Below, in pieces: positions 32,401-38,400 of a DNA stretch of 46,158 nt. The stretch comes from a virus (taxonomy: Duplodnaviria; Heunggongvirae; Uroviricota; Caudoviricetes), in IMG/VR virus record IMGVR_UViG_2859799533_000010. One strand, given 5' to 3'. How positions within the stretch are numbered: position 1 is the first letter of the stretch; the number at the start of each line of letters is the position of its first letter. The position numbers were made by a program.

Positions 32401-35400
32401 AGACATTCCACGCCACCAGCACGACGGATCACTGCCTCATTGCGGAACACAGCCCGAACGGCAGGATCATCCGCCAGCGGTTGTGATGCCGCCGGAACGG
32501 CACCACTGGCGAAAGATGAATAACGTTCCGGCTCAGGCTCCAGCAGGACACGCCCCTGCATAAACAGGGGCATCAGCTCTGAACCTGGCCTGAACAATAC
32601 GATCCCCATACGCGGGGCAATTTCAGGGGTCAGTAGTGCTCTCACGGTCACCTCAATGAACGGTATCGAGCAGCTTTAACAGCTCAGGGAATCGGGATTC
32701 GAAGAAATGCGGCTGCGTCTCGCGCGGATTTGCGGGACTGGTGATGTTCTTGCCGAACATGCAGCCTTTCGCTGTCAGCGACCAGAATTTTTTGATGTTG
32801 TTAATCGAGGTACGGCTGTATCGTTCGCGTTGTTCAACGATCCCCAGCTTCGCCATCTGGTGATATGCCTGATTAGCCGTAAGGCGGATACCATACTGTT
32901 TCAGCAGTGCACTCAGCGACAGCGTAGGGCGACTTGAGCCATCAGGCGCGTCAGCAGGAGCATCAATGGCATAGCGCGGTGCCAGATTCGGTAAGCCAAC
33001 AGCCTCCTGGAGTTTCTGACAGGCACCAAGCACTGAAGAGTTAGACAGGTTTAACTCCCTGCGCATAAAGTCCAGCAGAATCACTCCAGCCTGCATCTTG
33101 TCAGCAGCCTGCCCGGATAATTTTTCCGGTGCGCTGGTTACCATATCGAAAGTACGGATCACCTTCAGATGGAATGACGGGCTGATCCACATTGCATAGG
33201 CATACACCAGTTCTTTGCAGACATACGTCCCCTGGTTATTTCCGCCATTAATGACGCTAACTGGTTGATTTTGTTCCAGAGGCGGAATTCCACCCTCGGT
33301 GAAAAGTTGTTCAATCAATTCACAGGTTTGCTTATTGGAGAGCCAGTATTTCGGGCGGTTTTTTTGTTCTCCCCCGGCTGCCCTGTGCAGATCGTTCAGG
33401 CTGTAACGCCCATAAGCATCACGACGAACTTCAATACCATCAATAACCATCAGATTATTCATACTTCGTTTCTCCTCTTAATCAGGCGGCTGCACCCGCC
33501 GGTTTCTCATACTTACTGATAGTGATCTCGACCTTCCCTTTCGGGATAACCGGTCCCCACTCCACCAGCATTCTTTTCACCTGTCTGTCGTCTTCCCACA
33601 CACCCGCGTGGGTCAGGGCGTCAAACAGCGCCTTGTTATAGTTGTCCAGATCGCGGATCCGGTTATCCGGAGGAAACAACACGATCTCCACTGAAGCAGG
33701 TGCCGACGTTGGTTTTGGCAGACGACGTAACTGCTCAACTATTGCTGCGCACGCCGCGCTCTGAAATTTTCGCCCCGCCGCGCTTATCAGGCTCTTACCA
33801 GCAAATGCCCCTTTGTTGGGGTGTCGCCAGTAGGTGTTCACGCTGGGCGGGAAAGGCAGGATCAGCTTCATACTTTCAGGCCTCTCTCATGTAACCAGTG
33901 AGTTGCACGCAGCCTTGCGTTTTCCTCACCGGCAAGCAGTGAGCGGATAATCCCGACCGCCTCGCTGTCGTCGTCCTTCACCGCGGTATGAAGCGTGATC
34001 CCCCGGGCCACACCACGCTTTATCGTGATGACGCCTTTTTTCTCCAGTGCGCGAAGATGCTCCACCGCTGCATTCACCGAACGGTATCCCAGCATGGTTG
34101 CCACCTCCTGATTGGTTGGCGGGAAGCCACGCTCTTTCTGATAAGAAATCAGCATATCCAGCACCTGCTGCTGGCATTGAGTTAACGTCGTCATGCCGCC
34201 ATCTCCCTGACCAGCTTTTCCGCCTGCAGGCGAACCTGCGCCAGAAACGCCTCACCACATGCCTCAAGTTCATCGCGCCCGATATAGCTGATTGCCGGTC
34301 CCTTCCAGGTCTTGTCGAAAACAGCAATAGCACCAGCGAAGAAAGCGCCTGTCGGCACCTGCTTCTCATCCTTCGGGATAAACCAGGCAGGCAGTGAACC
34401 GCCCCGGGAATCCTGGAGACTAAACTTCCTGAGAAAGAGGTAAACAGGATGACTAAAAATACTCGTTTTTCCCCCGAAGTCCGTCAACGGGCAGTCCGTA
34501 TGGTTCTGGAAAGTCAGGGCGAATATGACTCACAATGGGCGACAATTTGTTCCATTGCTCCAAAGATTGGCTGTACGCCGGAGACTCTGCGTGTCTGGGT
34601 TCGCCAGCATGAGCGGGATACCGGGGGCGGTGATGGAGGGCTCACCACCGCTGAACGTCAGCGTCTGAAAGAGCTGGAGCGTGAAAATCGTGAACTGCGC
34701 CGCAGTAACGATATCCTTCGCCAGGCTTCCGCTTATTTTGCGAAGGCGGAGTTCGACCGCCTCTGGAAAAAGTGATGCCACTGCTGGATAAGCTGCGTAA
34801 GCTGTACGGGGTCGGACCGGTATGCAGTGAACTGCATATTGCCCCGTCAACGTATTACCACTGTCAGCAACAGCGACATCATCCTGATAAACGCAGTGCC
34901 CGTGCGCAGCGCGATGACTGGCTGAAGAAAGAGATACTGCGCGTATACGATGGGAATCATCAGGTATACGGTGTGCGTAAAGTCTGGCGTCAGTTGTTAC
35001 GGGAAGGTATCAGAGTGGCCAGATGCACTGTGGCACGTCTCATGGCGGTTATGGGACTTGCCGGTGTTCTCCGGGGTAAAAAGGTCCGTACGACCATCAG
35101 CCGGAAAGCCGTTGCCGCAGGCGACCGCGTAAACCGTCAGTTCGTGGCAGAACGACCTGACCAGCTGTGGGTAGCTGATTTTACTTACGTCAGCACATGG
35201 CAGGGCTTCGTCTATGTGGCGTTCATCATTGATGTGTTTGCCGGATACATTGTGGGGTGGCGGGTCTCATCGTCCATGGAGACGACATTCGTGCTGGATG
35301 CACTGGAGCAGGCGTTATGGGCCCGTCGACCGTCCGGCACGGTCCATCACAGTGATAAAGGTTCTCAGTATGTATCGCTGGCCTACACACAGCGGCTTAA

Positions 35401-38400
35401 GGAAGCCGGATTACTGGCATCAACAGGAAGTACAGGCGACTCGTATGACAACGCGATGGCGGAGAGCATCAATGGTCTTTACAAAGCGGAGGTAATACAC
35501 CGTAAGAGCTGGAAAAACCGTGCAGAAGTGGAACTGGCCACACTCACGTGGGTGGACTGGTATAACAATCGACGATTGCTGGAAAGGCTGGGCCATACTC
35601 CTCCGGCAGAAGCAGAAAAAGCTTATTATGCTTCCATCGGAAACGATGATCTGGCAGCCTGAGTTCACAGATAAAACACTCTCCAGGAAACCCGGGGCGG
35701 TTCAGCAGTTCAAAACCAATACGCCCGCGAATAAAAGCAATATGATCTGCATCTTCCGGCCACCACACTTCGCTGGTGGCAGCTTTGATCAGGAAAACAT
35801 AGCGCCCGCCCTTATCACGCATGGCACTGGCATGCTTCATGATGTAACGCATGCCGGTGATGTATTGCCCCTCATGCTGACTGGCGCGGCTGTATGGGGG
35901 ATTTCCAAAGGCAGCACCTTTAAGCTCCGCAAGGCGTTCTGACCAGTCATGCGCCAGCGCGTTGTCTTCCGCCGTGTAATACGCAGCGCATTTGGCGTTA
36001 TCACCGTCAGTGAACAGATCCAGAACAAACGGACCAAACAGGGTGTTAATTCCCCAGAAAATGTTGTCCGGCGTGCGCCACTGATCGCCCACTTCCTTCA
36101 GTTCATGGGCTGGTTTGTTCCGCAGTTCCACCAGCTCCTGGCAATATTTATTACTCATTAAGCCCCCACGTAATTCCCTGACAGATACCACTCATCACCC
36201 GATACAGCGCGCTTGCTGCTTTTCCGTAAACACTGCTCACGACGCGCCAGAAAATTGTTTCGTTCTGGCTGGGAGTGGCTTTCACGGAATGCCGCCATCC
36301 ACACCGTTGCAGCACGACGGTATAAGCCCCTGGACTCCAGTTCTTCAGCCTGGCGGGTCAGGCATAAAATCTCCCGCGGGTCGTTAGTGCCGACATAGAA
36401 ATTGCGCACAGGTCTGGTTTCACGAACTGGTTGCCGTTCCGCCTCCGGCGATATCTTTATCTGGCGCGGAAAATGTCTGCGTGTATCCCCTTCACAACGG
36501 TGAGCCACACGCCCACTCTGACGTAACTTGCTTGCTGACTGCAGAACGCGCTGCCGTGAGTAACCTGCAAAAGCATCCGCAATGTCTCCGGAAGTACACC
36601 CCGGATGGGCTTCAATGAATTTCTGAACTTCATTCAAAAGACTCATGATCACCCCCTGAATCCTGCCGGGATCTGGCTGTAGTCCACGTTGTCGTAACTG
36701 GCTTTGAAGTACGGGTCCTCACGTCTGGCTGCAGATACCGCAGGAACTTCCCAGGATTCTTCGAAATGACGATCCGGACCAAAGAACGTGACAGCCTGTT
36801 TCACAAATTGTGTGCCGCTGTTACCCATCGCAGATACCCAGCCCGCATAGCGTTTCACACCTTCCAGCATGGTTTCGGGGTTTACCCCCTCATTCAAACG
36901 GGCTTTCCAGACTTTGAAAGCTGCAGATTTTGAATTGCCACCAGTACGTTTGGGATATGCCAGCCATGCCTGCTCAAACTCCGGAGAGTATTCCGGTCGG
37001 TTTGAACGAACTCGCACAGACTCATCAGCAGATGCACCAACAGCTATTGGTTCATTGACTGGTTCTTTGACTGGTTCAAAAGAGTGACTGGTTCTGGGTG
37101 AATCTCCTGCACTACCCCCTAGTGCAACTCCTGCACTACCTGGTGAATTTGCTGCACCAGATAGTGAATTATTTGCACTACCCCCTAGTGAATCTCCTGC
37201 ACCATCCAGATGAAGGAGATAGATATTACTTGAGTTACCTTTTTCACCTTTCCGGGTGACTTTTTTTACCAGCCCGGACTCACAAAGGGCCGCAATATGA
37301 TTCATCACAGAACGTTTGCTAATCTCGCACTGGTCAGCAATATGCTGGTAGCTGGGCCAGCACTCACCCTGATCGCTGGCATTATCAGCCAGCTTGATCA
37401 GAACCAGTTTTCGCAATGGATTACCCACTCGAATTTTCATCGCTTTAACCATCAGCTCCATACTCATGCTGCACCTCCGAGATGCTTCATGTTTTTTCCG
37501 GAGCGAAAGGCTATAAGCGGCATACTGACGCGGTAATTACGGCCCAGCGGTTCACAAATCACCTTCTGACATTCACGGTCAACCAGGCTGACACGTAGAA
37601 CATGCCCTGCTGGCGTGGTGTACCACTGCCCAACTGTGGGTGTTGATATTTTTTTACGCTGAAATAAACGGTAAATGTTGAGGAGCAACGGATTAAGCAT
37701 GACGATGCCCTCCGCTGATATTCAGGAGACGGTGAATATGAAAATTAGCCTTATCCGCCAGACGAATACGTTCAGCTTGCAAGTTAAGAAGGGTTTCTAC
37801 CAGAACCTGATGTGCCTGCGGATCCGAAAGAGTTACCTTGCGCAGAGCACGTAGTGCAGTTGTTACATAACTGAGTTTATGTAAGTCTTCATCATTCAGA
37901 CGAGTGAGGGCTGGGACAGTAGCCATGATGGCAGCCTCCTTGATCGGTGAAATACTTCCACCACCGGAAACGCCAATTTCGCTGGTGGTGAACTGAACGG
38001 GGTTGGCGTAACCGGTGATCAAGGAAACCGGCGCATCTTTCGATGCCCCCGCCCAGCCCACCATAACTTTGATGTGAGCAAATGCGGACGATAAAAAAGA
38101 CGCTGGCGCGTCATATATCGCCTTGATCAATTCCAGGACGCCAATCCCGGCCCCCGCTTTATAAGGTGCCTGAACAGTGTAACGTCCCGGAATGGCAGAA
38201 TCAATGTGCTGGTGGTCCTTCACACTCAACAAAATCACGCTTGAATTTCCACAAAGGACTAAAGCACTCATGCGGGTAGTCTTTGCGAAGATAGATAACG
38301 CGCTGTGTTTCTGGCTCCCAACGAATAACATGAACATAAAGTCCTCTTCCGTCACGAAACCAGCGGTTAAGTTCCTGCACAACTCGCCCCCCACAGTCAG

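Follow-up and report, generated by a model that had tools for sequence, protein, structure and literature searches.

An intact IS629 element interrupts the Dam-like methyltransferase gene of a lambdoid prophage

The 46,158-nucleotide stretch of viral DNA analysed here (IMG/VR record IMGVR_UViG_2859799533_000010; Caudoviricetes), which we call the window and whose positions are used throughout, carries a complete copy of IS629, an insertion sequence (IS) of the IS3 family, inside a phage N6-adenine (Dam-like) methyltransferase gene. The element occupies 34395-35704 on the plus strand and is exactly 1,310 bp long, as delimited by its ends, its inverted repeats and its full-length identity to other copies. 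Read directly from the window, its first letters are TGAACCGCCCCGGG and its last letters are CCCGGGGCGGTTCA. A scripted comparison of the two ends places the left terminal inverted repeat (IRL), with its TG start, at 34395-34419 and the right terminal inverted repeat (IRR), which ends in CA, at 35680-35704, both given for the plus strand; 23 of 25 positions agree between the first 25 nucleotides and the reverse complement of the last 25, and the outermost bases read TGAACC...GGTTCA. Immediately outside the element lie two copies of the tetranucleotide GCAG, one at 34391-34394 and one at 35705-35708. A preliminary description of this DNA had proposed an element of about 1,310 bp with TG and CA termini, imperfect inverted repeats and GCAG on either flank, and each of these features was recovered; its interval, 34391-35708, spans the IS together with the GCAG on each side. 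IS3-family elements are recognized in part by a length of about 1.2-1.55 kb (1,310 bp for IS629), imperfect inverted repeats with TG/CA ends and a target duplication of 3-4 bp, and the window element shows all three. IS629 itself is known to generate 3-4-bp duplications at targets without sequence specificity, and prophages harbour 62% of its O157 copies (PMC3271280).

The interrupted gene is encoded on the minus strand. Reconstruction of the locus by excision of the IS assigns its 5′ part, codons 1-151 plus one base, to 35705-36158 and its 3′ part, residues 152-217 plus the stop codon, to 34191-34394. Deleting the IS in silico together with exactly 4 bp, that is, one GCAG, yields an uninterrupted minus-strand open reading frame (ORF) of 217 amino acids. 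Deletions that removed the IS with 0, 3 or 5 extra bases produced premature stops or a shifted frame and did not restore the ORF. The preliminary claim that removal of the IS and one GCAG would rejoin the two methyltransferase fragments in frame is thus borne out now that the check has been run, and only with 4 bp removed. The reconstructed protein has the same sequence as WP_001442792.1, which is annotated in E. coli 36C_1_fosA3, and it scores 255.5 bits against TIGR01712 'phage N-6-adenine-methyltransferase' (cut-off 97) and 155.9 bits against the Pfam family Dam, PF05869 (cut-off 28). Both matches support the original identification of the interrupted gene as a Dam-like methyltransferase, a label that we take to denote family membership only.

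WP_001442792.1 represents the N-6-adenine methyltransferase of lambdoid and Stx prophages, and the window gene sits in the same slot of the same module, in the order PerC, methyltransferase, LexA-like, RusA, KilA-N, DUF968 and Q. Unlike its intact counterparts, however, the window gene is not an uninterrupted full-length gene: it is interrupted after codon 151, no longer encodes the full domain and is best regarded as a disrupted member of the family. The (D/N)PPY catalytic motif is present as NPPY at residues 86-89, within the N-terminal fragment that is kept. That fragment runs on into the IS, giving a predicted chimera of 204 amino acids (35544-36158, minus strand) of which 53 residues are IS-encoded. 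Because 66 native C-terminal residues are cut off, including part of the Pfam domain, which reaches residue 198, the chimeric methyltransferase is most likely inactive.

The same locus exists without the element in many other genomes. At least 21 complete E. coli chromosomes, among them those of IAI39 and ETEC-2265, match a reconstructed 1,000-bp empty site at 100% identity from end to end, and at these loci an intact phage N-6-adenine-methyltransferase is annotated between PerC-family and LexA-family genes. Sequenced phages match the reconstruction at 97-98% identity, and at least 120 IMG/VR contigs contain an exact copy of the 38-bp empty target; the empty-site pattern had no match in the GTDB species representatives, a negative of no weight in a set with one genome per species. 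As the empty sites hold one GCAG and the window holds two, one on each side of the IS, the repeat is a true 4-bp target duplication.

The occupied junction, by contrast with the empty site, was found only once. It was absent from 5,426 complete E. coli genomes, from the GTDB species representatives, from 50,697 phage records and, in an exact search, from the IMG/VR contigs. The sole occurrence is in CP026866.1 (GCA_002949955.1, 4.68 Mb), which is 100% identical to the window from 29544 to 42158. The chimeric protein likewise forms a singleton cluster among about 15 billion proteins, with that same contig as its one source. E. coli FORC_042, which appeared with 100% coverage in the search for the occupied junction, proved to carry a different insertion about 0.5 kb away. 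Since IS629 is multicopy, being present at up to 53 places per E. coli genome in the search of complete genomes, a copy might have been misplaced here during genome assembly, and a 1-bp homopolymer indel in the tail-tip gene gpJ, described below, hints at long-read error. A misplaced repeat would not, however, give a perfect 4-bp direct repeat with the two gene halves at the exact IS termini, and the window copy differs from every other copy found. We therefore consider an assembly artefact to be barely credible.

IS1203 and IS3411 are isoforms of IS629, and under the ISfinder rule an isoform shares at least 95% nucleotide identity with the named element. The window copy is 99.1% identical over 1,310 of 1,310 bp to the mobile_element of LC567824, a Stx-phage record whose depositors labelled it 'insertion sequence: IS3 family IS629' and which served as the reference for this threshold. 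The LC567824 element is likewise 1,310 bp long, with the same termini and with orfA and orfB at offsets 55-381 and 378-1268; it differs from the window copy by 12 nucleotides, which translate into six amino-acid changes in OrfB, with none in orfA. The nearest copies found anywhere are on virulence-type plasmids of Shigella boydii (99.5%) and S. dysenteriae (99.2-99.3%), and the S. boydii NCTC 9850 plasmid copy, which differs from the window at six positions, has the A5G variant in common with it. In the complete E. coli genomes no copy exceeds 99.1% identity, and the majority lie within a 95-99% band, consistent with the IS629 subtypes of Rump et al. 2011 (PMC3271280). We conclude from these alignments that the element is IS629 itself, in its Shigella-type variant. 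It has in common with known IS629 an ALIL pseudoknot, a 3-4-bp duplication and a location in a prophage, and differs from it only by point differences, whereas the insertion site itself was not seen elsewhere.

The transposase genes are complete. The first, orfA (34449-34775, plus strand), encodes a helix-turn-helix (HTH) DNA-binding protein of 108 amino acids that matches PF01527, HTH_Tnp_1, at E = 6e-13. The second, orfB (34772-35662, plus strand), lies in the -1 frame and encodes a 296-amino-acid protein with the DDE catalytic domain; its domain matches are rve, HTH_21 and rve_3 (PF00665, at E = 5e-28, PF13276 and PF13683), and OrfB alone scores 309 bits against the NCBIfam model NF033516 'IS3 family transposase' (cut-off 160). 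The two ORFs overlap at GGAAAAAGTGATG, and the -1 frame is open from 34709, a span that includes both of the slippery motifs considered below. In the OrfAB fusion of 404 amino acids, the catalytic triad is D244/D303/E339, with 35 residues between the second D and the E and a K at E+7. The element thus combines two ORFs that overlap in phases 0 and -1, a slippery motif and a DDE/rve core with D..D..35..E spacing, as is typical of the IS3 family. Together with the HTH_Tnp_1 match, the full-length identity to LC567824 and the identical ORF offsets, these protein-level matches uphold the IS629-type, IS3-family assignment of the preliminary description. This copy of IS629 retains intact ORFs and inverted repeats, as well as intact frameshift signals and an intact DDE triad, and is probably still active.

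Two motifs are candidates for the programmed -1 frameshift that would join orfA to orfB. The U_UUU_G motif lies at 34736-34740 (plus strand), 30 nucleotides upstream of A_AAG at 34768-34772 (plus strand), which stands just ahead of the orfA stop codon and is the site singled out in the preliminary description. An apical loop-internal loop (ALIL) pseudoknot is predicted at 34730-34846 on the plus strand, where Rfam RF01497 matches over the full model (1-117) with 120.2 bits (E = 4e-32), against a gathering score of 50 bits. Its stem 1, at 34745-34761, is separated from the end of U_UUU_G by a 5-nucleotide spacer. In addition to a score above the gathering threshold, the cmscan alignment retains the loop-loop pairing that defines the structure, with the stem 1 apical loop GUUCGA facing the stem 2 internal loop UCGGAC in six pairs. 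Relative to the RF01497 consensus loops, GCUCGA/UCGAGC, the loops of the window IS629 carry one compensatory pair and one wobble. The window element therefore reproduces the ALIL signal of IS3411 (Mazauric et al. 2008, cited in PMC5009743) in its full-length model match, in the placement of stem 1 5 nucleotides past a U-rich motif and in its preserved loop pairing. ALIL structures are cited as stimulators of -1 frameshifting in IS3411 and at least 27 other ISs (review PMC5009743).

A downstream stimulator is expected 4-10 nucleotides from the slippery site, and of the tetramers measured in E. coli, A_AA.G shifts most readily (PMC4066793). Because the ALIL begins at 34730, with stem 1 starting 5 nucleotides after U_UUU_G, this upstream motif appears at least as likely as A_AAG to be the programmed shift site. 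The frameshift window given in the preliminary description, TGGAAAAAG, is accordingly right in containing an A_AAG motif, but the ALIL is positioned for the upstream U_UUU_G. A shift at either motif would give the 404-amino-acid OrfAB, and the two products would differ only in the 10 residues between the motifs. Both T4G and A4G are reportedly used in IS629, according to work attributed to Chen and Hu. The downstream motif also varies among copies: around position 34772 (IS position 378), the sequence is GGAAAAAGTGA in the window and in the S. boydii NCTC 9850 plasmid copy, and GGAAAAAATGA in the E. coli IS629 copies examined. The G for A at this position is silent in OrfA, converts A_AAA into A_AAG and makes GTG, instead of ATG, the nominal start of orfB. 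On its sequence, A_AAG should be more shift-prone than the A_AAA of the E. coli copies.

Taken together, the excision test, the empty sites and the intact element leave little doubt that the Dam-like N6-adenine methyltransferase gene of a lambdoid prophage was interrupted at codon 151/152 by transposition of an intact IS629. In the course that we propose, OrfA and the 404-amino-acid OrfAB DDE transposase would be made, the latter through -1 ribosomal frameshifting at U_UUU_G and/or A_AAG, aided by the ALIL pseudoknot; the features themselves are observed, and frameshifting is what they would predict. OrfAB would then recognize the TG..CA inverted repeats and, as is known for the IS3 family, probably move the element by copy-out-paste-in through a circular intermediate, a pathway summarized for IS629/IS1203v (bioRxiv 10.1101/2023.06.07.543989). 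Paste-in at 4-bp staggered cuts duplicated GCAG, as comparison with the empty sites shows, and this duplication is the only step of transposition with a verifiable trace here. Precise excision of IS629 is possible when the transposase and the IEE protein are supplied (bioRxiv 10.1101/2023.06.07.543989), and excision of this type would restore precisely the empty site that other genomes carry.

The remainder of the window provides the context for this event. It corresponds to a complete lambdoid prophage, of a kind whose integration site lies between prfC and yjjG (chromosome CP026866.1, an accession within a block of Shigella records), extending from a reverse transcriptase-TIR (RT-TIR) gene at 25-1626 to the integrase at 44938-46158 and measuring 46.2 kb with both of its ISs, IS629 and an ISEc11. 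Completeness was checked by translating every coding sequence (CDS) annotated in two E. coli relatives and searching the products against the window; all were present at full length except three, the Dam-like methyltransferase, a second DNA methyltransferase (N6_N4_Mtase) and gpJ. The gene for N6_N4_Mtase (27111-28172, minus strand) has ISEc11 inserted at its ATG, which gives it an IS-derived start (MRSY...). ISEc11, an IS110-family element with a DEDD transposase, occupies 28147-29605 (transposase ORF 28433-29452, minus strand) and is 99.8-99.9% identical to annotated copies; its junction with N6_N4_Mtase was absent from the complete E. coli genomes. The sequences that flank this element, ACAGTATTT on one side and TTTTCA on the other, recur at two unrelated insertions, in an integrase gene and in the tnpB of IS66, which indicates that the ISEc11 target is sequence-specific. 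The tail-tip gene gpJ (6739-10133, minus strand) is split into ORFs of 561 and 577 amino acids by a 1-bp deletion in a C run at about 8455-8458, where the relatives have CCCCC and the window has CCCC; the frameshift may be genuine and inactivate the gene, or it may reflect a sequencing error in the homopolymer. The preliminary description had read the IS629 insertion as post-integration decay of the prophage. Three lesions are indeed present, but every other gene matches the full length of its E. coli counterpart.

As to timing, the insertion is recent, and it most likely took place in the lysogen, where a Shigella-type IS629 already resident would have been the donor. Insertion after lysogeny is supported by flanks with zero substitutions relative to the empty sites, by the Shigella-type variant and by the singleton allele. 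The preliminary description had gone further and used the element to date IS activity after phage acquisition; this is the parsimonious reading of the same three observations, but one that we infer and do not regard as proven, because the methyltransferase is dispensable and 46.2 kb should still be packageable. Nothing contradicts the identification of the element, but some further points limit our account. Short-read assemblies break at multicopy ISs and draft genomes cannot reveal this junction, so that its apparent uniqueness is in part due to sampling. At 46.2 kb the prophage is probably still within the lambdoid packaging range, and on size alone an infectious phage could have carried the IS. 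With these we list a promoter and terminator scan of 34100-36300, neutral on the question of polarity raised below, which returned no promoter-like sequences and three terminator-like ones against a shuffled expectation of 2.4.

IS629 could instead have entered the phage genome before the present lysogeny, in an earlier host or lysogenic cycle, and have arrived with the infecting phage, in which case it would date nothing. The accessory nature of the methyltransferase, the full length of the remaining early, lysis and head genes and of most tail genes, and a total size that can still be packaged are all compatible with such a history, as are independent IS629-type insertions near the site in the prophages of other strains. 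In E. coli FORC_042 (locus L001, 3798-5107), an IS629-type insertion with its own 4-bp duplication lies at the equivalent of window position 36202-36205, in the 3′ end of PerC, the gene that immediately precedes the methyltransferase. In the chicken isolates Z1323CEC/TB (Z1323CEC0003, locus L004, 2616-3413), a truncated IS abuts a methyltransferase remnant at about 34308, with a group II intron adjoining. Both insertions are in the same orientation as in the window and lie 0.1-0.5 kb from the window site, but their sites differ from it, and their IS variants are 96.4-96.6% identical to the window IS629. They are separate events, and separate insertions in such proximity are to be expected because IS629 has no sequence-specific target and inserts mostly in prophages (PMC3271280). 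Against an arrival with the phage stand the absence of the junction from the phage records, IMG/VR contigs and complete E. coli genomes searched, an IS variant that is that of Shigella plasmids, flanks identical to the empty sites and a chimeric protein that is a singleton. Entry before lysogeny is therefore unlikely, and we favour transposition of IS629 within the lysogen.

Whether such a transposition was neutral or selected is a further question raised by the other lesions. The prophage carries an intact RT-TIR gene at its prfC-side end (25-1626, plus strand), whose 534-amino-acid product is assigned to RT-TIR_XII by PADLOC with 621 bits and has the same sequence as WP_005025120.1, 'TIR domain-containing anti-phage reverse transcriptase'; the gene is a defence gene carried as a moron. 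In the early-right operon, IS629 has an antisense orientation and sits upstream of the LexA-like, RusA, KilA-N, DUF968 and Q antiterminator genes. Because of this position upstream of Q, a polar effect on the late genes is conceivable and, speculatively, IS629 may lower late-gene expression. The insertion might then have been favoured, either because the methyltransferase was lost or because a block to the Q-dependent late operon fixed a retron-bearing prophage. Both DNA methyltransferase genes of the prophage have been struck by ISs (IS629 in one, ISEc11 at the ATG of the other), gpJ is frameshifted and the RT-TIR retron gene is intact, as this explanation would have it. However, the ISEc11 site is accounted for by target specificity, given that the same flanks are found at two unrelated insertions; IS629 has no sequence-specific target and lies mostly in prophages (PMC3271280); and the event is a singleton without recurrence at the site, in a genome so rich in ISs that neutral insertions are expected. 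Selection for this insertion is accordingly very unlikely.

A broader form of the idea holds that the IS629, ISEc11 and gpJ lesions were jointly favoured, because they immobilized a prophage carrying a host-beneficial type XII RT-TIR retron or because they removed phage methylation. If true, it would amount to IS-mediated domestication instead of neutral decay. We set aside the notion that both methyltransferases were lost by selection, since ISEc11 has the same flanking target at unrelated loci. Sequence-specific targeting by ISEc11 explains the second methyltransferase insertion, for which reason we give adaptive readings little probability, and the joint one strikes us as a decidedly long shot.

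The meaning of the insertion is correspondingly modest. A known IS has entered a typical kind of target in a public genome, and the biology is already known; this is an ordinary event in an IS-rich genome of the Shigella/E. coli type, and only the presence of IS insertions in both methyltransferase genes of one prophage is mildly unusual. The locus is due an annotation as a pseudogene, namely a phage N6-adenine methyltransferase disrupted by IS629, with a 4-bp duplication of GCAG. As the junction appears to be strain-specific, strains could be typed by it in the way that IS629 sites are used for E. coli O157, and the element offers a clean example of an intact IS629 in which the ALIL pseudoknot accompanies both candidate motifs for the -1 shift. 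Beyond annotation its significance is small, and it neither opens nor answers a standing question.

Three small RNAs were also matched at the Rfam gathering level, all on the minus strand of the window. The sRNA IS009 lies at 2117-2315. The C4 antisense RNA, at 37981-38068, and the Hfq-binding RNA isrK, at 38093-38169, fall together in an ash/ant-like region upstream of the replication genes.

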